Program-made: the position numbers and the translations under genes
Notes under the pieces: model-generated
Seen by the model: the letters and a program-made list of their open reading frames with translations, nothing else
What the model was told of the DNA's origin: nothing
Database searches by the model: none
Source of the DNA: Candidatus Iainarchaeum sp.
GTDB lineage: Archaea > Iainarchaeota > Iainarchaeia > Iainarchaeales > 0-14-0-20-30-16
Direction of reading: 5' to 3'
DNA length: 32,000 bases
NCBI GenBank assembly: GCA_028710695.1
Contig: JAQTTP010000007.1
Span: 1-32,000 of the forward strand
Shown here: one piece after another, positions 1,560 to 30,009 of the stretch
Position numbering within the stretch: the stretch's first letter is position 1
Layout of the letters: every line of letters starts with the position of its first letter

Positions 1560-1566
1560 GCATAGA

Positions 1567-1650
1567 CGCAGGGAGTGGGATTCGAACCCACGCCTCCTTG
1601 CGGAGACCGGCTTTCCAGACCGGCGCGTTGAACCACTTCGCTACCCCTGC
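1567..1650 (-). tRNA. tRNA-Ser (anticodon GGA), class II with long variable arm, no encoded CCA
   Basis: Minus-strand fold done by hand. Acceptor GCAGGGG/TCCCTGC. D arm GCG..CGC. Anticodon stem CCGGT/GCCGG with loop CTGGAAA. Variable arm CTCC-GCAA-GGAG. T arm GTGGG-TTCGAAT-CCCAC. Discriminator G. Confidence 0.9.
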
Positions 1651-1675
1651 AATCTTTCTTTCCAAAAGAAAGATT
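1651..1675. repeat. Perfect 11-bp palindromic hairpin (AATCTTTCTTT-CCA-AAAGAAAGATT) directly abutting the 5' end of tRNA-Ser
   Basis: Read directly from the sequence. It has the same core and the same CCA/TGG loop as the hairpin at 1531-1559, so the tRNA is bracketed by twin palindromes. Confidence 0.7.
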
Positions 1676-1692: not shown

Positions 1693-1723
1693 GTACCACA
1701 CAAGGTGGTACAGTGCTTCGCAC
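1693..1723 (-). other. Conserved two-hairpin module, copy 1 (candidate structured RNA or protein-binding element upstream of tRNA-Ser)
   Basis: Minus strand: GTGC-GAA-GCAC, T, GTACCAC-CTTGT-GTGGTAC. Copy 2 at 29887-29918 has the same architecture and two compensatory base-pair changes. Confidence 0.55.
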
Positions 1724-1843
1724 ATTAAAACAAGAATCAAAGCAAATAACCAGCCAAAAAACACCCATACAAAAAAATACAGGATAGAATTTGACTCCTA
1801 TAAGGCTTTTCACCCTATTTTATATTATATCTATATTGTAGAT

Positions 1844-1862
1844 AATATATAAAAAAGCATTA
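1844..1862 (+). promoter_or_regulatory. TATA-like promoter motif AATATATAAAAAAGCATTA upstream of valS
   Basis: Nearly identical to AATATATAAAAAGCATTA at 10714-10731 upstream of tldD. A second TATA-like TATTATAA at 1875-1882 lies about 28 nt before the alternative start at 1907. Confidence 0.4.
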
Positions 1863-1894: not shown

Positions 1895-4276
1895 ATGGTG
1901 TCAATTATGGAACAAAATAAGTATCAACAAGAATCAGTATTAACCGAAAAAACCTGGACAAAAGAAATGGAAATTGAACGAGCAAAAAAGATTTTTTCCA
2001 AAGAAAGAACCAAGTTCAATCCAAAAACAAAAAAGAAGATCTATTCTATTGACACACCACCTCCATTCATAAACGCCCCAATCCACATAGGGCATGCAAC
2101 AACATATGTCCTAATGGATATGTTTGCAAGATACAAAAAACAAAAGGGCTTTGAAGTAATATTCCCTTTAGGCCTAGACAGAAACGGCCTGCCAATAGAA
2201 GTAGCTGCAGAAAAGAAATTTAATGTAAAACTTACAACTCTGAGCAGGGAAAAGGCACTAGAATACTGTGAAAAAGTTCTTGCAGAAACATCTTTAGCAT
2301 CAACAAATGCCTTCAAAGGCTTAGCAATTGAATTCAACTCATACCAGCTTGGGCCAAATGTTGGAGATGCTTATTACACAGACATGGAAGATTACAGAAT
2401 ACTAACACAAGCAACATTCATAGAACTTTGGAATAAAGGGCTTATTTATGAAGACGAAAGAATAAATAATTGGGATCCTGCTTTACAGACAACAATTGCA
2501 GACTCAGAAATAGATTACAAGGATATTGAAACCTTATTCAATGATATTAAATTCAAATGCAAAGAAACCGGCGAAGATTTGATTATTGGAACAACAAGAC
2601 CGGAGCTTATCTCTTCTTGTGGAATGGTAATCTTCAATCCTGAAGATAAAAGATACAAACAACTAAACGGAAAAACTGCAATAACTCCAATCTACAACAG
2701 AGAAGTAAAAATAAAGGCAGATCCTTCTGCAAAAATAGATAAAGGAACTGGTCTAGCAATGATGTGTTCTGCAGGAGACTTAAGCGATATTAGATTTTTC
2801 AGAGATAATAACATAAAACCAATAATTAGCATAAACAAAGATGGCACAATGAACAAAAATGCTGGCTTCTTAGAAGGATTAAAAGTAAAAGAAGCAAGGC
2901 AAAAAATGATTGAAGAGTTAGAAGCAAAAGACTTACTAGTTAGCAAAAGAAAAGTCATGCACACAATACCAATAAGTGAAAGATCGAAAGCGGAAATAGA
3001 GTTCATATCTATGAAAGAATATTACATGAAACAGATGCAAGTAAAAGATAAAATTATGGAAATTGCAAAAGAAACAAAGATTTATTCTGAGAATTCAAGA
3101 CAATTACTAATAGACTGGATTAATTCTGTAAATATGGATTGGCCAATATCAAGAAGAAGATACTATGGAACTGAGATTCCACTATGGTTTTGTGAGAAGT
3201 GCGGTTATGTATACTTGCCAAAACCTGGAAAATACTACAGACCATGGAAAGAGAGCCCAGATATAAAAGAATGCCCCGAATGTAAGCACAAGAAATTCAT
3301 AGGAGAGACAAGAATTTTTGACACATGGTTTGATTCATCCTCAAGCCCACAGTTCATCTTGGGCTATTACAAAGATAGAAAGTTCTATGACAAGAATACT
3401 CCCTGCTCCCTAAGGCCGCAAGGAAAAGAGATAATCAGAACTTGGTTATATTATACTCTATTAAAATCATACTTACTAAATGGAAAAAACATCTTTGATG
3501 CTATCTGGATAAACCACCACATCCTAGACGGAAAGGGTATAAAAATGTCAAAGTCTTTAGGCAACACTATAGACCCACAAGAAGTTATTGCGAAGTATGG
3601 TTGTGAACCATTTAGATTATGGGCTTGTCTAGAGGGAAACATCACAAACTCAGACATGATGTGTTCATACGACAGGATAAGCGGAGCAACAAAGACAATA
3701 ATCAAACTTTGGAATGTTGCTAAGTTCATATCATCTTTCAAAAGGACTGACAAAGCAACCCTTACAGAAGTTGATAAAAGCATTCTTACAGATTTAGATA
3801 GCTTAATTAAAGAATCAGAAAAATCATTTGAAGAGTACGATTTCCACAACCCTTCAAAAGCAATAAAGCATTTTATCTGGGAAGACTTAGCATCCCACTA
3901 CCTAGAAATTGCAAAGAAAAGAATTTATTCTTTGGATATGGAGGACAAAAGCAAGGAGGCAGCAATATACACATTATATACAGTTCTTGAAAAGTTGCTA
4001 GTTTTGCTACATCCAATAAATCCTCTTATAACAGAAGAGATCTATTCAAACCTTTATAAGAAAGAGATTTGCTTAGAAAGTTTCCCAGAACTTGAAAACA
4101 TAAAATCCAAAGTAGAGTTCAGCGATATAATAAAAATAAATACAGAAATTTGGAAATACAAACAAGAGAACACAATAAAGAATATAGAAACATTGGAAAG
4201 CTACAAGATCCCAAAAGAACTCGAAGCAGTAAAAGAAGACATTGCATTATTGCATAACATAAAAACAGTTAAGTGA
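1895..4276 (+). CDS. valS: Valyl-tRNA synthetase (class I, archaeal type)
   Basis: 793 aa. HIGH region PPPFINAPIHIGHA...PLGLDRNGLPIE. Editing-domain signature GTTRPELISSCG..NPEDKRY (ValRS ATTRPET-like). KMSKS motif as KMSKSLGN. An alternative start is the ATG at 1907 (MEQNKY). Confidence 0.8.
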   Translation: MVSIMEQNKYQQESVLTEKTWTKEMEIERAKKIFSKERTKFNPKTKKKIYSIDTPPPFINAPIHIGHATTYVLMDMFARYKKQKGFEVIFPLGLDRNGLPIEVAAEKKFNVKLTTLSREKALEYCEKVLAETSLASTNAFKGLAIEFNSYQLGPNVGDAYYTDMEDYRILTQATFIELWNKGLIYEDERINNWDPALQTTIADSEIDYKDIETLFNDIKFKCKETGEDLIIGTTRPELISSCGMVIFNPEDKRYKQLNGKTAITPIYNREVKIKADPSAKIDKGTGLAMMCSAGDLSDIRFFRDNNIKPIISINKDGTMNKNAGFLEGLKVKEARQKMIEELEAKDLLVSKRKVMHTIPISERSKAEIEFISMKEYYMKQMQVKDKIMEIAKETKIYSENSRQLLIDWINSVNMDWPISRRRYYGTEIPLWFCEKCGYVYLPKPGKYYRPWKESPDIKECPECKHKKFIGETRIFDTWFDSSSSPQFILGYYKDRKFYDKNTPCSLRPQGKEIIRTWLYYTLLKSYLLNGKNIFDAIWINHHILDGKGIKMSKSLGNTIDPQEVIAKYGCEPFRLWACLEGNITNSDMMCSYDRISGATKTIIKLWNVAKFISSFKRTDKATLTEVDKSILTDLDSLIKESEKSFEEYDFHNPSKAIKHFIWEDLASHYLEIAKKRIYSLDMEDKSKEAAIYTLYTVLEKLLVLLHPINPLITEEIYSNLYKKEICLESFPELENIKSKVEFSDIIKINTEIWKYKQENTIKNIETLESYKIPKELEAVKEDIALLHNIKTVK

Positions 4277-8972: not shown

Positions 8973-9297
8973 ATTTATTACTCCCTGAAAAGTAATTTTT
9001 GTAATTCAATACTCAACAGAAAAGTCAAATAAACTAATAAGAATCCACTCTTAAACAGAGTAAATAAAATTTATCAACCGTTCTATAGCCCTATTGGCCT
9101 ATATTTTATCGCAATTGCATTTCATCACAATCACCGATTATAGTTTTTTACCTAATCACATCAATTACTATACTATATAACTTACACAGGTATTAGTTTA
9201 TAAATTAGCAAGATAAAAGCAATAGTGTCTACCTTTTGTAAAATATGCATTACATTTAAAAACAAAACCCCCTCTTTAATTAGTTAGCTTTAATGGA

Positions 9298-9366
9298 ATA
9301 TCCCAAACCTTTTGGTTTGTGGATATGGTCTGTTTTTGGCAGACTGTGCCTTTTTTTTAAAAAGGC
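9298..9366 (+). other. Three back-to-back hairpins immediately upstream of tRNA-Pro
   Basis: (i) 9298-9326: ATATCCCAAACC-TTTT-GGTTTG(T)GGATAT, 12 bp with a 1-nt bulge. (ii) 9328-9344: GTCTG-TTTTTGG-CAGAC. (iii) 9348-9366: GCCTTTTT-TTT-AAAAAGGC. The last ends 2 nt before tRNA position +1. Bases 9334-9354 are identical to the reverse complement of 25635-25655. Confidence 0.6.
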
Positions 9367-9368
9367 TA

Positions 9369-9442
9369 GGGGCCGTGGTGTAGCCCGGTAAGCATCTAAG
9401 CTTTGGGAGCTTAAGACCCCGGTTCAAATCCGGGCGGCCTCA
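9369..9442 (+). tRNA. tRNA-Pro (anticodon UGG), no encoded CCA
   Basis: Hand fold. Acceptor GGGGCCG/CGGCCTC (one G-U pair). D stem GTGT/GCAT. Anticodon stem TAAGC/GCTTA with loop TTTGGGA (G37). T arm CCCGG-TTCAAAT-CCGGG. Discriminator A. A T-rich tract (TTTATTTTT) follows. Confidence 0.9.
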
Positions 9443-21479: not shown

Positions 21480-24176
21480 TTACATCAATTTGCTTATTTC
21501 TTGTTCAATTTCTTTAACATTAACACTTATTCCGCTTATTTGTGCAAAGTCCAGGGATCCGCCACCTTTTCCACCAAATTTGCTTGAGATCTCTTTTGCA
21601 ATGAATCCTGCACCTTTCTTTACAACATTTGAATTTACAATTATATTCATCTGTTCTATATCCTTAGAATAAATTATTAGTAAATCAAATTTATTAACAA
21701 ATCTTTTTTTTGCCATAATTCCAAGCTTCAAAAAAGACTCCACATTGTAGATTTTTACATCTTTTACTATTTTCTTTCCTTTTTCTAATTCCAACCCAGA
21801 AATTATTCTTTCTGATTCTTTTTCATCAACTTCCACAAGTGCTTTTTGCAAGGTTTTCAATTCCTGCACATTTTTGTCTATTGCCATCAAAACATCATTC
21901 TTTGGAACTTTCAGTAATTCACTTGCTTTATCAACAGTTTGCTGTAATTCCAATCCATAATTTACTGCAGGAATTCCTGCTTTAAAGTAGATTCTTTCAA
22001 CACCATCTCTTACTGATTCTCTTTTTACAATTTTAAAATATCCCATCTGTCCTGTCTTTTCTAAATGAGTTCCACCACAAGCCTCAACATCTAATCCTGG
22101 TATTTCTATTATTCTTAATTCTTTTCCTGGAACTGCCCCACCCTGATAGATTCTAAATCCGTATTTCTGTTCAGCAACTTGTCTTGGGAAAATTGTTTTC
22201 TTGACTGCCAAATCTTGCTGGATATATTCATTAACTTTTCTTTCAATTTCTTCCAATTCGTATTTAGTAATTGCTTTAAAATGAGTAATATCTAAGTGAG
22301 CAATATCTGCTTTTTTATTTGCTCCTGCTTGCCAAATGTGCTTTCCCAAAACTTGCTGGCAAACACCATTCAACAAGTGAGTTGAAGTGTGATGTTGTGA
22401 CAAAGCAAGCCTTCTTGAGAAGTCTATTTTACAAGTAACTGTTGAATTTTTCTTTATCTTCTTTGGTTCTGAAACTTTATGCAAAATTACATCACCGATA
22501 TTCTTTACTTCTAATACTTTTATTCCATCTATTTCTCCTAAATCACAATCTTGTCCGCCACCCTCTGGATAGAACGCAGATTTATTTAGGACAACATAAT
22601 CTTCAACTATTCCCTGCACTTTTGCTTCAAAAGAATCCATATAAAAAAATTCATAATACAATTTTTCAGTCTTATCAAAATCTTTTACTTTTGCTTGTAA
22701 AGGATCAATCTCTTTTTGAACAGCAGGAAGTTTTTTATCTAAATTTATTTCCTGAACTTCTAAAATCATATTTTCTTTTTCTGCAACTTCTTTAACTTGT
22801 TCTAAAACAACACCATAAGACTCATACAAAAATGAAAGATCTTGTTCTGTTATTTTATTCGTTTCTTTCTTTTTCTTTGTTAAATATGCACTTACTACAG
22901 ATCTTGACAGATCTTTTGATTTTCTATATTTTTCATATTCAGTATCTAAAACATTAAACACAATATTACTTTCCCCCAACTCCGGGTACAAAGGCTTCAA
23001 GTAATTTATGTGTTTTTCTAAAACTGTGTTTAAATCAGATGAAAAGTTATTTTTTTCATACAAAGAAAATGCTCTTCTCAAAACATATCTTAGATTGTAT
23101 CCACCACCAGTATTAGATGGAAGCATCCCATCCACAGAAGTGAATAAAATTGTTTTCAAGTGGTCCAAAATTGCATATGCTGACTGCAATGGGAACAACT
23201 GTTTTTTCATAACAGAGTATTCAATCCCAATTTGTTTTGCAATTTCATATTCATCAGTTCCATTTCTTTCAGAGAAATCAATTTTTCCTGCACCCATAAC
23301 ATATTCTTCTAAAAATACAGGTTCTTTTATAGATTCTTTACTCAAAAAGTGCTTTGCAACAGGTCCAAAAGTAATATCATAAGACATTGGCTTTGTGTCA
23401 GTAATCCACGCAAATCTTTCTTGACCTGCACCCATGTCAATTACTTTTGTATCTAACTCTTTCAAGCCTTTGTCAGTCAAATAGTATTGCATGAAAACAC
23501 AGTTTCCTAGTTCAATTCCATCTACAAAGTATTCCAGAGATGGCCCTACATTTCCGCCACCCATCCAAACATCTTCTCTAAATACTACTTTTTCTCTTGG
23601 TATTCCTAAAGCTTTTGTTAAAAATAAAAAGTCGTTTTCTATTGCTTGATCTTTCCAATAAAACAATCCTGTTTTTTTATTATTAAATGCGTGCTGCCCA
23701 ATCATTACAAAATTAGTATAATGCCTACCAGTAACTCCAACATTCGGGATATCATTAAACCTTAAACAAGGCTGATTTATTACTAGTGGGTTAGCCACAG
23801 GTTCTACTTCTCCAGACACAACATATGGCTGAAACCCAGTTATAGACGCCAAATTAAAGTAAATATCATTTCTCCATCTTGCAACTGTTGGAAATCTCTT
23901 TACAGAGGTGTGATTTTTCTTATTAAAAAATCTTTCAAAAGTCTTCCAAGCTTCAATATAATCTAGCTTTTGTGGAGTTATTTTTCTTCCAATGAATTTA
24001 TACCCTACACATTCGGAGTCTTCACAAAATTCTCTGTTTGGGTCCAAAGTCCAGAAATAGTTCTTACATTTTTTACACTGCTTTCTTGTAAACCCTTCTT
24101 TCTCTAAAAAAGCAAGTTTATAGTGGTCTTCCCACTTCTTAGCAAAGTCTTGTTTTAATTGTTTCTTGTCAAGCAT
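21480..24176 (-). CDS. alaS: Alanyl-tRNA synthetase (archaeal type)
   Basis: 898 aa. Archaeal N-terminus with CKKCKNYFWT. Editing-domain HxxxH...CGGTH (SQHHTSTHLL, EACGGTHLEKTG). C-terminal DHHA1-like GGGKGG. AAGGTG SD lies 8 nt upstream. Confidence 0.95.
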   Translation of the reverse strand: MLDKKQLKQDFAKKWEDHYKLAFLEKEGFTRKQCKKCKNYFWTLDPNREFCEDSECVGYKFIGRKITPQKLDYIEAWKTFERFFNKKNHTSVKRFPTVARWRNDIYFNLASITGFQPYVVSGEVEPVANPLVINQPCLRFNDIPNVGVTGRHYTNFVMIGQHAFNNKKTGLFYWKDQAIENDFLFLTKALGIPREKVVFREDVWMGGGNVGPSLEYFVDGIELGNCVFMQYYLTDKGLKELDTKVIDMGAGQERFAWITDTKPMSYDITFGPVAKHFLSKESIKEPVFLEEYVMGAGKIDFSERNGTDEYEIAKQIGIEYSVMKKQLFPLQSAYAILDHLKTILFTSVDGMLPSNTGGGYNLRYVLRRAFSLYEKNNFSSDLNTVLEKHINYLKPLYPELGESNIVFNVLDTEYEKYRKSKDLSRSVVSAYLTKKKKETNKITEQDLSFLYESYGVVLEQVKEVAEKENMILEVQEINLDKKLPAVQKEIDPLQAKVKDFDKTEKLYYEFFYMDSFEAKVQGIVEDYVVLNKSAFYPEGGGQDCDLGEIDGIKVLEVKNIGDVILHKVSEPKKIKKNSTVTCKIDFSRRLALSQHHTSTHLLNGVCQQVLGKHIWQAGANKKADIAHLDITHFKAITKYELEEIERKVNEYIQQDLAVKKTIFPRQVAEQKYGFRIYQGGAVPGKELRIIEIPGLDVEACGGTHLEKTGQMGYFKIVKRESVRDGVERIYFKAGIPAVNYGLELQQTVDKASELLKVPKNDVLMAIDKNVQELKTLQKALVEVDEKESERIISGLELEKGKKIVKDVKIYNVESFLKLGIMAKKRFVNKFDLLIIYSKDIEQMNIIVNSNVVKKGAGFIAKEISSKFGGKGGGSLDFAQISGISVNVKEIEQEISKLM

Positions 24177-24278: not shown

Positions 24279-25625
24279 ATGCTTGATATTAACTTATTTA
24301 GAGACGATAAAGAGTTCAAAAAGATCTTAGAAAGCGAGAAACGAAGGGCAAAACCCTTAGATTTCGCAAAGGATACAAAGAAGTTCGATGATCTTTGGAA
24401 AAAAGCAAAGCAAGAGAAAGAAGAACTGAGAGCAGAAAAGAACAAGGTTACCAAAGAGATAGCAACCGTAGCTCAAGACAAAAACACAAAAAACGAGCAT
24501 AAAACAAAGGAGATTACAAGATTAAAAGCTAAAAGCAAAGACTTAGATATTAAAATTAAAAATCTAGAAGAGCAAGAAACTAAAGCCCTACAAACAAGAG
24601 ATGAAAACCGTTACAAAGTAGGAAACATCCTTTACCCTTCTGTCCCAAATGGAAAAAGCGATGAAGAGAATGTTCCATTCAAATTCTATGGAAAAGCAAA
24701 AGTCCAGAAGCAGCATTTAGCAGATTTCAAAAAAGCAACTAATAACAAAATGGATTATGAATTATTGGACTTTGAGCCAAAAAGCCATGCAGATCTAGGT
24801 CCCGAAAGAGGACTATTCGATTTAGAAAGAGCTGCAAAAATCTCTGGTGCACGAGCTTATTACCTAAAAGGCAAACTAGCAATCTTACATCTATCTCTTT
24901 TGAGGTTTGCATTAGACAAGCTTGTTGATGCGGGCTACATGCCACTATATACTCCATTTTTAATAAACAAAGATGTTATGGAAAAAGCAGCAGAGCTAGC
25001 AGACTTCAAAGAAACCCTATACCAAACAACAGAAGGCCAATTCCTAATTGCAACAGCAGAGCAGACTTTGGCAGCATATCACCTGGACGAAGTTCTAGAT
25101 GAAAAAATTCTACCCCTAAAGTATGCTGGATACTCTTCCGCATTCCGAAGAGAGGCAGGAAGTGCTGGGAAAGATACAAGAGGGATCTTCAGAGTTCACC
25201 AATTTGATAAAGTTGAGCAATACGTTTTTTGTAAAGCAAAAGACAATGAGAAAATCCATGAGGAACTTCTAAAGAATGCAGAAAGCATTTACAAAGATCT
25301 AGAGCTTCCATACAGAGTTGTTAATATTTGCACAGGGGATATGAACGACACGGCAGCAAAGAAGTATGATATTGAACTGTGGATGCCAGTGCAAGGAAAG
25401 TTCAGAGAGATTGGTTCTTATTCCATAACAACAGATTATCAGACAAGAAAGTTGAATGTAAGATATGAAGAAAAAGGAGAAAGAATAGTTTGCCATTCTT
25501 TGAACGGCACAGCATTACCATCTCCAAGAAGCTTAGCAGCTTTCATCGAGAATCATCAAGACAAGAAAGGAATAATACATATACCAAAAGCATTACAGAA
25601 ATATACGGGGTTTAAAGAGATCTAG
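24279..25625 (+). CDS. serS: Seryl-tRNA synthetase
   Basis: The start is taken at the ATG giving MLDINLFR (the track begins at TTG 24267). N-terminal coiled coil. TAEQTLAAYH. Motif 2 FRREAGSAGKDTRGIFRVHQFDKVEQ. Motif 3 GTALPSPRSLAAFIENHQ. Confidence 0.95.
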   Translation: MLDINLFRDDKEFKKILESEKRRAKPLDFAKDTKKFDDLWKKAKQEKEELRAEKNKVTKEIATVAQDKNTKNEHKTKEITRLKAKSKDLDIKIKNLEEQETKALQTRDENRYKVGNILYPSVPNGKSDEENVPFKFYGKAKVQKQHLADFKKATNNKMDYELLDFEPKSHADLGPERGLFDLERAAKISGARAYYLKGKLAILHLSLLRFALDKLVDAGYMPLYTPFLINKDVMEKAAELADFKETLYQTTEGQFLIATAEQTLAAYHLDEVLDEKILPLKYAGYSSAFRREAGSAGKDTRGIFRVHQFDKVEQYVFCKAKDNEKIHEELLKNAESIYKDLELPYRVVNICTGDMNDTAAKKYDIELWMPVQGKFREIGSYSITTDYQTRKLNVRYEEKGERIVCHSLNGTALPSPRSLAAFIENHQDKKGIIHIPKALQKYTGFKEI

Positions 25626-25712
25626 CCTTTTACGAAAAGGCACAGTCTGCCAAAAGTACCTAAGGTACTAAGGGGCACAAGGCCCCTCGAAATCTCGGTT
25701 TCTAGCCTTTTT
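25621..25712 (-). repeat. Orphan composite hairpin element flanked by an 11-nt direct repeat (TCTAGCCTTTT at 25621-25631 and 25701-25711)
   Basis: Minus strand: AAAAGGCTAGA, then a small CGA-GATT-TCG hairpin, then GGGGC-CTTGT-GCCCC, then GTACC-TTA-GGTAC, then TTTTGGCAGACTGTGCCTTTT-CGT-AAAAGGCTAGA. The last block matches the segment upstream of tRNA-Pro (21-nt exact identity plus 10 nt). The CTTGT-loop hairpin echoes the modules at 1693-1723 and 29887-29918. Confidence 0.6.
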
Positions 25713-26462
25713 TTATTCTTTTTCCAAAGGCAGGGTTAAATTACTGTCCCAGATTGCCCTAAAATAATTTTTATAACTCTCTGCTAAATTCTTGTCAATT
25801 ATTCTAACTGCAAAAGGAAACTCTTTATACCAAAATACCAATACAACTCTATCCCCATAAATCCAGGTGGATGCCGGAGATTCATAACTTTCTGGCATGT
25901 ACTTAACTTGTGTATATTGCATTGCTGCAAATTCTTTTCCTCTTTTCATACTTTGTGGAGTGTTTATCATTATTATCTTCAGGGGGATTTTTGCTTGTTG
26001 CCGTTCTTTTTCAAATGAATGGGCTCTTGCACCACTTATTTCGGGGCCTTTTCCAGGAACATTATAACCAAACCATTCTTGCTTCTGCCTAACAACATCA
26101 TTATAAATAGTTTTTAATCCTTCCAAACCCTCCAAAATCTCCACAATTGGCTTGTTAAATCTTGGTTTATAGAGATTAATCAGTTCTGGCAAAATCTCCT
26201 CAAAAGCTTTTTCTTTTTCTTTTAAGTGGTCCAATATTTTATTTGGCTCTGCGGCACGATAATATCTTACATTATTTTTTATGATATAGGTAACAATTCC
26301 TTTTTCTTCCAAAGTTTCCAAAATAGAATATAGTAAACTTCTGTTTATTTTTGTCCTATTTGCTATTTCGGAAACTAATGCATCCCCCAAGTTAAGTAAG
26401 GCGGTGTAAACCTTTGCTTCTTTAGGGGTTAAGCCTATTTTTTCCAATTGTTCAAGATCCAT
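25713..26462 (-). CDS. TrmB-family transcriptional regulator
   Basis: 249 aa. The N-terminal winged helix LEKIGLTPKEAKVYTALLNLGDALVSEIANRTKINRSLLYSILETLEEKGIV is the classic TrmB signature. A TATA-like TTTAAAATAA lies about 24 nt upstream, suggesting a leaderless transcript. Confidence 0.85.
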   Translation of the reverse strand: MDLEQLEKIGLTPKEAKVYTALLNLGDALVSEIANRTKINRSLLYSILETLEEKGIVTYIIKNNVRYYRAAEPNKILDHLKEKEKAFEEILPELINLYKPRFNKPIVEILEGLEGLKTIYNDVVRQKQEWFGYNVPGKGPEISGARAHSFEKERQQAKIPLKIIMINTPQSMKRGKEFAAMQYTQVKYMPESYESPASTWIYGDRVVLVFWYKEFPFAVRIIDKNLAESYKNYFRAIWDSNLTLPLEKE

Positions 26463-28161: not shown

Positions 28162-28293
28162 CTAGTTAAGTTCTCCTCTTCTTCTTGCTCTTTCTCTCTT
28201 ATTTCTCTTCATTCTTTTCTTGTGCCATTTCCATCTACCATCGGCAGCCTTGGTTTTCTTAAATCTACTCGAATCTTTTCCTCTATGTCCCAT
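28162..28293 (-). CDS. 43-aa highly basic micro-protein, possible ribosomal protein eL41 homologue (not in the ORF track)
   Basis: Minus-strand ATG at 28293, preceded by AAAGGTGA with 5-nt spacing; stop TAG at 28162-28164. Translation: MGHRGKDSSRFKKTKAADGRWKWHKKRMKRNKRERARRRGELN. The core KWHKKRMKRNKRERAR resembles eukaryotic eL41 KWRKKRMRRLKRKRRK. Long oligo-T runs follow on the minus strand. Confidence 0.5.
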   Translation of the reverse strand: MGHRGKDSSRFKKTKAADGRWKWHKKRMKRNKRERARRRGELN

Positions 28294-29603: not shown

Positions 29604-29630
29604 GGGCCTCTACGGCCCAGTTTTTCTTTT
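29604..29630 (+). terminator. Hairpin GGGCC-TCTAC-GGCCC followed by TTTTTCTTTT
   Basis: It starts immediately after the stop codon of the methyltransferase gene. A G+C-rich 5-bp stem is followed by a T-run. Confidence 0.5.
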
Positions 29631-29674
29631 GGCAAGATTACTTGTTTTCTTTCTTTTTGGCAAACTTAGGCTTA

Positions 29675-29699
29675 TTCTTTCTTTTTTGAAAAGAAAGAA
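29675..29699. repeat. Perfect 11-bp palindromic hairpin (TTCTTTCTTTT-TTG-AAAAGAAAGAA), 12 nt beyond the 3' end of tRNA-Glu
   Basis: Homologous in sequence, position and flanks (CTAT..CC on the tRNA side, AGCC-TAAG and TTTGYCAAAAAGAAAGAA on the far side, tRNA-sense strand) to the hairpin at 1531-1559. Confidence 0.7.
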
Positions 29700-29711
29700 A
29701 AAGGATAGTAG

Positions 29712-29783
29712 TGCCCCGACCGGGAATCGAACCCGGGTCGTCGGCTTGAAAGGCCAACGTGATAACCACTACACTACCGGGGC
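29712..29783 (-). tRNA. tRNA-Glu (anticodon UUC), no encoded CCA
   Basis: Hand fold. Acceptor GCCCCGG/TCGGGGC. D arm GTG..CAC. Anticodon stem TTGGC/GCCGA with loop CTTTCAA. T arm CCGGG-TTCGATT-CCCGG. Discriminator A. Confidence 0.9.
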
Positions 29784-29886
29784 GGGAACAAACTTTCCCC
29801 AAAAAGCTAATTTGCCTTATTGCAAATTACTTTAGGGGGCCAAGAAAATTTCCTTGTATGGAAATTTGTCTTTTCCCGTTAGAGTT

Positions 29887-29918
29887 GCACTACACAAGGT
29901 AGTGCGGTGCTAACGCAC
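29887..29918 (-). other. Conserved two-hairpin module, copy 2 (upstream of tRNA-Glu)
   Basis: Minus strand: GTGC-GTTA-GCAC, C, GCACTAC-CTTGT-GTAGTGC. Compare copy 1 at 1693-1723. Confidence 0.55.
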
Positions 29919-30009
29919 ACAACGAGAAAAATTTTGTTTTTCTGTTTTACGTAAAAAAACAGATTATGATTTTATTACTTGCAATATCTTTTAAAAGGTT
30001 ATAGTTGAT

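Follow-up and report, generated by a model that had tools for sequence, protein, structure and literature searches.

We report here on a compact two-hairpin module found in two copies, upstream of the genes for tRNA-Ser and tRNA-Glu, in a 32,000-nucleotide stretch of DNA from the DPANN archaeon Candidatus Iainarchaeum sp. (contig JAQTTP010000007.1, positions 1 to 32,000; hereafter the window). Our analysis leans toward seeing these modules, each consisting of a first hairpin (H1) and a second hairpin (H2), as the two-hairpin form within a family of dispersed hairpin repeats that is restricted to the lineage of this archaeon and its closest relatives. The modules are paralogous, lie in both orientations and cluster at tRNA flanks without being confined there; hairpin blocks have been gained, lost or replaced between genomes whose neighboring proteins are 82–97% identical; and in the copies that persist the stems change by compensatory pairs only.

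The DNA examined comprised about 84 kb of clade DNA: about 40 kb from the 54.9-kb source contig and about 45 kb of non-redundant sequence from close relatives, whose syntenic loci were gathered through protein look-ups and one metagenome scan. By identity to the window proteins, these loci are L106 (seryl-tRNA synthetase, SerRS, 97%; a short tail only), L088 and L093 (SerRS 93–95%), L111 and L112 (HD protein 90%), L113 and L114 (HD protein 83%), and L082 and L089 (GCA_964480435.1 and related assemblies; valyl-tRNA synthetase, ValRS, 80% and SerRS 82%). In the more distant L108–L110 (SerRS 67–69%) no hairpins of the H1 or H2 type were found; these loci also lack tRNAs and are hence uninformative. 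The coding content of the window is archaeal (AglB, TrmB and archaeal aminoacyl-tRNA synthetase genes), with its ValRS being nearest to DPANN proteins.

Two modules with a resemblance beyond chance

Read on the minus strand, copy 1 consists of H1 at 1713–1723 (GTGC-GAA-GCAC, which includes GCGAAGC), a single T, and H2 at 1693–1711 (GTACCAC-CUUGU-GUGGUAC, beginning GUACCAC as RNA). Copy 2, on the same strand, consists of H1 at 29907–29918 (GTGC-GUUA-GCAC), a single C, and H2 at 29887–29905 (GCACUAC-CUUGU-GUAGUGC). The tRNA genes, called concordantly by ARAGORN and Rfam, are tRNA-Ser(GGA) at 1565–1651 and tRNA-Glu(UUC) at 29711–29783, both on the minus strand, and tRNA-Pro(UGG) at 9369–9442 on the plus strand. 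An initial annotation of this DNA had described both modules with exact sequences and coordinates, including the identity of the first stem, the loop and its C-G closing pair; of the distances to the tRNA 5′ ends that it gave, 42 and 103 nt, the latter stands for tRNA-Glu, whereas the former is 41 nt for tRNA-Ser by our measurement.

The two copies have in common the H1 stem, the CUUGU loop and two closing pairs, and differ at pairs 2 and 5 of the H2 stem, where U:A is exchanged for C:G and C:G for U:A. The two compensatory changes that had been claimed for this 7-bp stem are thus borne out between copies 1 and 2, and also in orthologs from relatives. For each copy, the predicted RNA fold of minimum energy consists of precisely these two hairpins, with ensemble shares of 0.89 and 0.93, respectively. 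The shared two-hairpin pattern matches twice in the window and never in 100 shuffles, and when the regions upstream of the two tRNAs are aligned locally, the top-scoring segment is the module, with a score of 30 as against 19.5 ± 2.6. That score was reached by 4 of 1000 dinucleotide shuffles, so that comparably similar hairpin pairs in shuffled spacers, which the initial annotation had named as fatal to its proposal, are rare. Among 199 background matches to the sequence motif none has a stem of at least 6 bp, while both window copies have seven perfect pairs. The resemblance of the modules is beyond chance.

Several conventional identities were considered and rejected for these modules. The open reading frames (ORFs) overlapping them (1439–1813, minus; 1445–1852, plus; 29629–29835, plus) extend over the tRNA genes and match nothing in Pfam, which disposes of an encoded peptide and agrees with the earlier view that no credible ORF explains the modules. 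The sequence directly 3′ of H2 is CCTTTCTTTG in copy 1 and AACTCTAACG in copy 2; neither begins with the T run expected of an intrinsic terminator, and that identity was likewise rejected. The same holds for K-turn, C/D, H/ACA and tRNA half or fragment readings.

The wider family of H2-type hairpins

The H2 unit can be described as a perfect 7-bp stem of variable sequence with a C-G closing pair and a YUURY pentaloop, mostly CUUGU. It is found at about 6–7 loci in the window organism and three close relatives, with a density of 4–5 H2-type hairpins per 40 kb; full H1–H2 units are limited to copies 1 and 2 of the window and one in L082, i.e., three in two genomes, and GTGC-N3-5-GCAC occurs at just 3 loci in the clade DNA.

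What had been noted as a partial third copy at 25672–25686 is indeed an H2-type hairpin, but a complete one: copy 3 (25670–25700, minus), located in the convergent SerRS/TrmB spacer, has a 3-bp mini-hairpin, CGA-GAUU-UCG, followed by GAGGGGC-CUUGU-GCCCCUU (25688–25670). Its orthologs in L088 and L093 read GAGAAGC/GCUUCUC, which amounts to two adjacent compensatory changes from G:C to A:U. The remainder of this composite (25626–25669, minus) is made up of AGUACC-UUA-GGUACU, UUUUGGCAGACUGUG, CCUUUU-CGU-AAAAGG and CUAG; it contains a 21-nt exact repeat in common with the tRNA-Pro leader, and the same architecture directly abuts tRNAs in L088, L089 and L111. The repeat, TTTTGGCAGACTGTGCCTTTT, lies at 9334–9354 (plus) and 25635–25655 (minus), and is followed at both sites by an AT-rich hairpin and CTAG. 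The composite bearing it abuts tRNA-Pro at the first site and the SerRS stop codon, on the opposite strand, at the second, where it looks as if a tRNA leader had been left without its tRNA.

The proximity of copy 3 to a TrmB-family gene (25713–26462), together with the presence of perfect palindromes in promoter-bearing spacers, could point to palindromic operators for a dimeric DNA-binding regulator such as this TrmB-family protein. We give this hardly any credence: the arms of the hairpins vary freely and the asymmetric center is conserved, the opposite of an operator in which the arms are read, and copy 3 has been kept in L088 and L093, which lack the TrmB gene. The comparison with transcription-factor operator palindromes, which need conserved arms and a free spacer, was rejected on the same pattern of varying arms and conserved center.

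An H2-derived hairpin in the tRNA-Pro leader (9298–9326, plus; AUAUCC...GGAUAU) has its loop expanded to C-AAACCUUUUGGU-UUGU and is homologous, along with the next 40 nt, to ATATCCC-CTTGT-GGGATAT of L088 and L093. It is followed by a tRNA-proximal composite (9327–9368, plus) of GGUCUGUUUUUGGCAGACUGUG, CCUUUUUUUUAAAAAGG and CUA, which directly abuts tRNA-Pro. Composites of 21–43 nt are common to the tRNA-Pro leader, copy 3 and L088/L093. Further, an H2-like 5-bp hairpin lies between tRNA-Ser and the HD gene (1488–1502, plus; GGGGC-UUUAU-GCCCC, with an AUAAA loop on the tRNA/HD-sense strand), and has orthologs in L113/L114 (GGGGC-ATAAA-GCCCC) and L082 (GGGCC-ATAAA-GGCCC).

The ortholog of H2 of copy 1 in L114 (907–925; also in L113), GCACTAC-TTTAT-GTAGTGC, stands at the same distance from the tRNA and differs from copy 1 at two compensatory pairs, the very ones at which copies 1 and 2 differ. 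Its stem is identical to that of copy 2, which suggests that GCACTAC came first and that the duplication giving copy 2 may have preceded the change in copy 1. The L082 unit reads GTGCC-TTT-GGCAC TC GTATGGC-TTTAC-GCCATAC; with copy 2 it shares H1, an H2 of 7 bp closed by a 5-nt loop, and AACTC(T/A)AACGGGAAA as the 3′ flank, the copy 2 flank AACTCTAACGGGAAA being also found beside the L082 copy. Thus, the further copies and compensatory substitutions in related genomes on which the initial annotation had staked its proposal do exist (L082, L088, L093, L113 and L114).

In a count that is not biased toward hairpins, 7 of 10 CCTTGTG heptamers in the clade DNA are centered in hairpins of 5–7 bp, and perfect hairpins of at least 6 bp have CTTGT (counted together with ACAAG, its reverse complement) as their most frequent pentaloop. 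Across 8 H2 sequences 98% of the cells pair, both partners have changed in 6 of the 7 pairs, and the closing C-G is constant; as several of the sequences had been chosen for being hairpins, this count holds partly by construction and the orthologs are the informative cases. More generally, the hairpin blocks are mosaics of H1, H2, AT-rich hairpins, the UUUUGGCAAACUUAG box, the box TTTTGGCA(A/G)AC... and GGGAAAGTTTGTTCCC, in varying combinations and orientations.

Turnover between close relatives

The tRNA-Glu orthologs of L088, L093 and L089 (SerRS 82–95% identical) have no copy 2 upstream of them, and here only the distal AACCTTTTAAAAGATATTG region and the tRNA itself are common with the window and the hairpins in between differ. 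The L082 H1–H2 copy is antisense to tRNA-Cys and directed toward ValRS. In L088 and L093 a block of about 60–70 nt carries an extra H2 copy, antisense in the 5′ region of an adjacent small basic ORF, and this block is absent from the window and from L106; the copy-3 region is also absent in L106. At tRNA-Pro, the window exceeds L082 by about 70 nt in the spacer from the conserved promoter-like CATTACATTTAAAAACAAAACC to the tRNA, the surplus being the hairpin cluster (9298–9368). L111, the closest relative at tRNA-Ser, has a proximal leader unrelated to that of the window, and L114 keeps H2 and the following 40 nt but has tRNA-Cys there. A view of the module as specific to tRNAs does not hold up against this turnover, the inversion in L082 and the H2-type hairpins located away from tRNAs, namely in the SerRS/TrmB spacer and the small-ORF 5′ region of L088/L093.

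An extremely basic 43-residue ORF, MGHRGKDSSRFKKTKAADGRWKWHKKRMKRNKRERARRRGELN (28162–28293, minus), was missed by the gene caller and has no Pfam match; it is conserved in the window, L088, L089, L093 and L106, and its 5′ region has a conserved hairpin with compensatory changes.

The slot between the HD and ValRS genes holds tRNA-Ser(GGA) in the window (1565–1651, minus) and in L111 (57–143), and tRNA-Cys(GCA) in L082 (5465–5540), L113 and L114 (969–1040). The two tRNAs agree in their acceptor and T arm (the initial 11 nt and the final 24 nt), and they differ in the D, anticodon and variable arms, with a discriminator base of G versus T; from these sequences it looks like the tRNA body has been replaced inside a conserved cassette. 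In L111 (124–260; also in L112) a three-hairpin block of about 95 nt directly 3′ of tRNA-Ser is bounded by a 17-nt direct repeat, GTTCGAATCCCACTCCC, duplicating the tRNA 3′ end, an att-like insertion footprint. L111, L112 and L113, which are independent metagenome contigs, all start no more than about 60 nt upstream of the tRNA in this slot, which is consistent with repeats breaking assemblies there. In addition, a box found 5′ of tRNAs, TTTTGGCAAACTTAG, is the reverse complement of one found 3′ of tRNAs, CTAAGTTTGCYAAAA; in L088 (2850–3015, minus) the two pair as a 12-bp leader–trailer helix around tRNA-Glu (z = -5.7), and the trailer box is also present 3′ of the window tRNA-Glu (29655–29670) and, in degenerate form, 3′ of tRNA-Ser (1508–1530).

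Such configurations could be accommodated by hairpins acting as recombination sites, i.e., att- or attC-like single-stranded DNA folds recognized by a recombinase, which would shuffle tRNA genes or insert small elements at their loci. This proposal can draw on the single slot holding tRNA-Ser or tRNA-Cys with identical acceptor and T-arm ends, the duplication-bounded block of L111, the inverted boxes flanking tRNA-Glu in L088, and the fact that d(GCGAAGC) is an extra-stable DNA mini-hairpin. However, neither an integrase nor an HUH enzyme was found in the loci examined, H1–H2 does not lie at the junctions of the swapped segments, and the L111 duplication involves neither H1 nor H2. Hence, we regard it as improbable.

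Putative long leaders and the question of a functional RNA

We identified a BRE/TATA-like motif (B recognition element plus TATA box), GTAATGCTTTTTTATATATT, at 1843–1862 (minus) as a putative tRNA-Ser promoter, from which a leader of about 170 nt would include copy 1; it is conserved in L114 and L082, and the motif also occurs upstream of the NDK gene. The TATA-like AACCTTTTAAAAGATATTGC at 29981–30000 (minus) is the candidate promoter of tRNA-Glu, with a leader of about 180 nt including copy 2, and is kept in L088, L093 and L089 while the sequence from there up to the tRNA is replaced. The candidate for tRNA-Pro is ATGCATTACATTTAAAAAC at 9245–9263 (plus), conserved in L082. These promoters were assigned by conservation and position only, and the AATGCTTTTTWWWWW promoter motif shows no statistical enrichment in the window. 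No TATA-like sequence was found between the hairpin clusters and the tRNAs at any of the three window tRNAs, the preceding 40 nt being filled by hairpins. As the tRNA-sense BRE/TATA-like motifs stand solely upstream of the clusters, the implied leaders are about 90–180 nt long, and the modules probably lie inside co-transcribed, unusually long pre-tRNA leaders. The earlier suggestion of long tRNA leaders is thus plausible in view of these conserved motifs, whereas that of a conserved RNA linked to the tRNAs is not sustained.

In the tRNA-Ser leader, a tRNA-proximal hairpin, AAUCUUUCUUU-UGG-AAAGAAAGAUU (1651–1675, minus), overlaps the tRNA 5′ end with its last base. Long perfect hairpins of the form CTTTCTTTT...AAAAGAAAG, with stems of 11–13 bp, are found on both sides of tRNA-Ser (1651–1675 and 1531–1559) and after tRNA-Glu (29675–29699); with T-runs on both strands, they may be bidirectional terminators or insulators.

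The main alternative to dispersed repeats, which we entertain without considering it probable, is that the module is a dedicated cis-acting RNA element of long pre-tRNA leaders, protecting the 5′ end, guiding or timing leader removal, or recruiting a protein via its C-YUURY-G loop; its diversity would then reflect fast structure-preserving evolution rather than mobility. This would fit the retention of the H2 position and of the 7-bp/5-nt geometry, with two compensatory pairs, between the tRNA-Ser leader of the window and the tRNA-Cys leaders of L113/L114, and the occurrence of a small hairpin plus a larger GC-rich hairpin at the site of the module in relatives that lack it. It would also fit a loop that is optimal for RNA stability, sense strands that fold better than antisense strands, and the lack of TATA-like sequences between the clusters and the tRNAs. 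Moreover, the minimum-energy fold of the tRNA-Glu leader has a possible outer helix around copy 2 (29871–29930, minus), seen in this one instance, in which UUUUCUCGUUG (29930–29920) pairs with UAACGGGAAAA (29881–29871), and its 2 G.U pairs exist on the tRNA-sense strand only. On the other hand, the module is dispensable at tRNA-Glu in close relatives and inverted in L082, H2-type hairpins are found in the 3′ spacer of a gene and, in antisense, in a 5′ region, the L111 tRNA-Ser leader is wholly different, and the loop varies to UUUAU in L114 and UUUAC in L082. The folds of the tRNA-Glu and tRNA-Pro leaders are far more stable than those of shuffles (z = -5.8 and -5.3, respectively). Strand assignment from G.U pairs is ambiguous: in the window copy 3 favors the minus strand, in L088 the plus strand.

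An independent small non-coding RNA gene, with its own transcription upstream of the tRNA, would likewise be compact and stably structured, and AT-rich sequence does lie about 20–30 nt upstream of each copy. However, the unit is merely 31–32 nt long, is not followed by a T-tract terminator, has no Rfam match, is not conserved at orthologous sites and occurs in both orientations, and we find this option very hard to uphold.

Searches beyond the clade

Against Rfam 15, with its C/D, H/ACA, leader and small RNA families, only the tRNAs rise above the gathering threshold, and even under permissive filters the best overlapping matches reach 12.9–26.7 bits as against thresholds of 42–91. The initial annotation's failure to recognize a known RNA family is thus matched by the database. 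A covariance-model search, which that annotation had suggested and which we ran with H2 over 156 kb of clade and near-clade loci, yielded no additional copies: above 20 bits it recovered only its own training copies, and extra weak matches at 13.6 bits are the L113/L114 orthologs of the 1488–1502 hairpin. The maximum of the same model in 636 kb of unrelated DNA is 19.1 bits. A generic double-hairpin descriptor gave 26 matches versus 15.5 ± 3.9 in shuffles and is too loose to be useful.

The motif GTGC-N3-5-GCAC-N6-ACCTTGTGT matched 79 times in 185,579 GTDB species genomes, in unrelated organisms with stems of at most 5 bp and none of them in DPANN archaea; these genomes thus yielded no copy of the module. 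A slightly looser motif returned at least 120 chance matches from IMG/VR, none with a stem above 5 bp, and the leader box TTTTGGCAAACTTAGSCTTT had 0 matches in IMG/VR. About 25 of the 79 GTDB matches (e.g., L005, L007, L009, L011 and L013) represent a conserved motif of Clostridia, CAAGG-GTGC-AAUAA-GCAC-GGUACC-ACCUUGUGU-UUAACUC, which has no relation to the two-hairpin module and probably belongs to some known structured RNA.

Possible origin and maintenance of the hairpin repeats, and their analogs

If the hairpins are dispersed repeats, the blocks could spread by duplication, through transposition or ectopic recombination between tRNA flanks, and the leaders of about 90–180 nt, which would be trimmed by 5′ processing, would tolerate such insertions. 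Selection would then hold each block tightly self-folded, such that it neither mispairs with the tRNA body nor exposes the precursor, and the C(CUUGU)G and GCGAAGC loops would fit this requirement; alternatively, a copying mechanism dependent on the hairpin might require that the fold be kept.

GCGAAGC, which is held by H1 of copy 1, is an extra-stable mini-hairpin, d(GCGAAGC) being a classic in DNA. The loop of H2, with its closing pair, is C(CUUGU)G, which ranked first in stability among the natural RNA pentaloops measured in one thermodynamic survey (PMC9074901), and CUUGU in SL2 of the coronavirus SARS-CoV folds like a CUUG tetraloop (PMC7504604). Thus, selection for a very stable fold suffices to explain the conservation of the loop, and the protein-binding site proposed in the initial annotation is not needed for it. 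The orthologous loops UUUAU and UUUAC also show that the loop is not fixed. These extra-stable loops are, in any case, loop motifs rather than element families such as the hairpin repeats.

Some points weigh against a family of dispersed repeats. The copies are few, the clade DNA of about 84 kb having 3 H1–H2 modules and about 6–7 H2-type loci; the roughly 40 kb of contig examined showed no gene for a transposase or recombinase; and no target-site duplication or consistent terminal repeat was found at the copies. Further, the tRNA-linked copies are mostly tRNA-sense, the position of H2 is exact between the window and L114 (41–42 nt from the tRNA) though the tRNA body differs, and the sense strand folds better than the antisense strand in 7 of 8 leaders, a weak point as the sense strands are G+T-rich. 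Indeed, the position kept in L114, the excess of the sense orientation and the better sense folds fit a functional leader RNA at least as well. The covariation, which had been put forward as the signature of structural selection, does show that pairing is kept; but perfect DNA palindromes covary in families of repetitive extragenic palindromes (REPs) too (PMC3733652), so that covariation alone is not proof of an RNA function. The dispersed-repeat and leader-element readings are, by analogy with bacterial REPs, not exclusive of each other.

REPs and the bacterial interspersed mosaic elements (BIMEs) built from them are short GC-rich extragenic stem-loops, single or in mosaic clusters, often transcribed and strain-variable (PMC3733652, PMC2817692), and it is common for a REP family to be divided into sub-families that differ by complementary replacements in the stem (PMC3733652). 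The hairpins described here are likewise extragenic palindromes of 20–40 nt that form a GC-rich stem-loop, and they too have alternative complementary stem residues, in the same 6 of 7 pairs counted above. Unlike REPs, they lack the unpaired terminal GTAG or CGTC tag (PMC3733652) in the flanks of copies 1, 2 and 3 and of the L082 copy, and they differ from REPs and BIMEs in their archaeal host, their small known copy number (REPs number tens to hundreds per genome) and their location at tRNA flanks rather than mRNA 3′ ends. No gene for a RAYT, the Y1 HUH transposase, is among those called in L001, L002, L082, L088, L089 and L111.

A second set of analogs comes from mitochondria, where hairpin and double-hairpin repeats invade intergenic regions, differ between close relatives and are not removed from transcripts (PMC2800124). 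As in these double-hairpin elements and the GC clusters of yeast, one or two adjacent GC-rich hairpins are dispersed in the spacers of a compact AT-rich genome, and as in the former their presence or absence differs between close relatives; the genome here is archaeal rather than organellar, and there is no sequence relationship. We accordingly describe the archaeal hairpin repeats as apparent analogs of REPs/BIMEs and mitochondrial double-hairpin elements, and as members of neither.

Transposases of the IS200/IS605 group recognize small imperfect hairpins in single-stranded DNA, with the fold rather than the sequence being conserved. In contrast to these elements and their miniature derivatives, no TnpA or TnpB gene, cleavage tetranucleotide or element ends were identified in the DNA examined here. 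As for features of miniature inverted-repeat transposable elements, imperfect inverted flanks of 11 nt are found at copy 2 but at neither copy 1 nor the L082 copy, and no target-site duplication was recognized. The L088 tRNA-Glu leader and trailer boxes, pairing in their 12-bp helix, are reminiscent of the processing stems of archaeal rRNA and tRNA; unlike in those stems, no bulge-helix-bulge motif was identified, no search having been aimed at one, H1–H2 lies outside the helix, and the pairing was not found in L089.

A more far-reaching and, in our estimate, rather unlikely scenario would combine several of these threads. The modules might be undescribed archaeal mobile double-hairpin elements that have colonized pre-tRNA leaders, are co-transcribed with them, and have been co-opted as signals for leader maturation or protection that are read through C-YUURY-G, perhaps also serving as a recombination substrate for the exchange of Ser and Cys tRNA bodies within a leader/trailer cassette.

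The window also brings together, within 32 kb, four aminoacyl-tRNA synthetase genes (ValRS, 1895–4276; AlaRS, 21480–24176; SerRS, 24279–25625; and GluRS, 30637 to beyond 32000) and three tRNA genes, with tRNA-Glu adjoining the GluRS gene. In the 32-kb window we found no evidence of the hairpins being a link between the tRNAs and the synthetases.

Implications

Bacteria and organelles are well known to harbor families of small palindromic repeats, and our literature searches found no description of such a family in DPANN archaea, the genomes of which are usually regarded as streamlined. The present case also illustrates that covariation in perfect palindromes is no automatic evidence of a functional RNA, and that repeats probably break metagenomic assemblies at tRNA loci. 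If the dispersed-repeat reading is true, these archaea would tolerate the invasion by repeats of the spacers around their tRNA genes, their pre-tRNA leaders, at 90–180 nt, would be far longer than is usual in archaea, and their tRNA loci would be hot spots of modular recombination.

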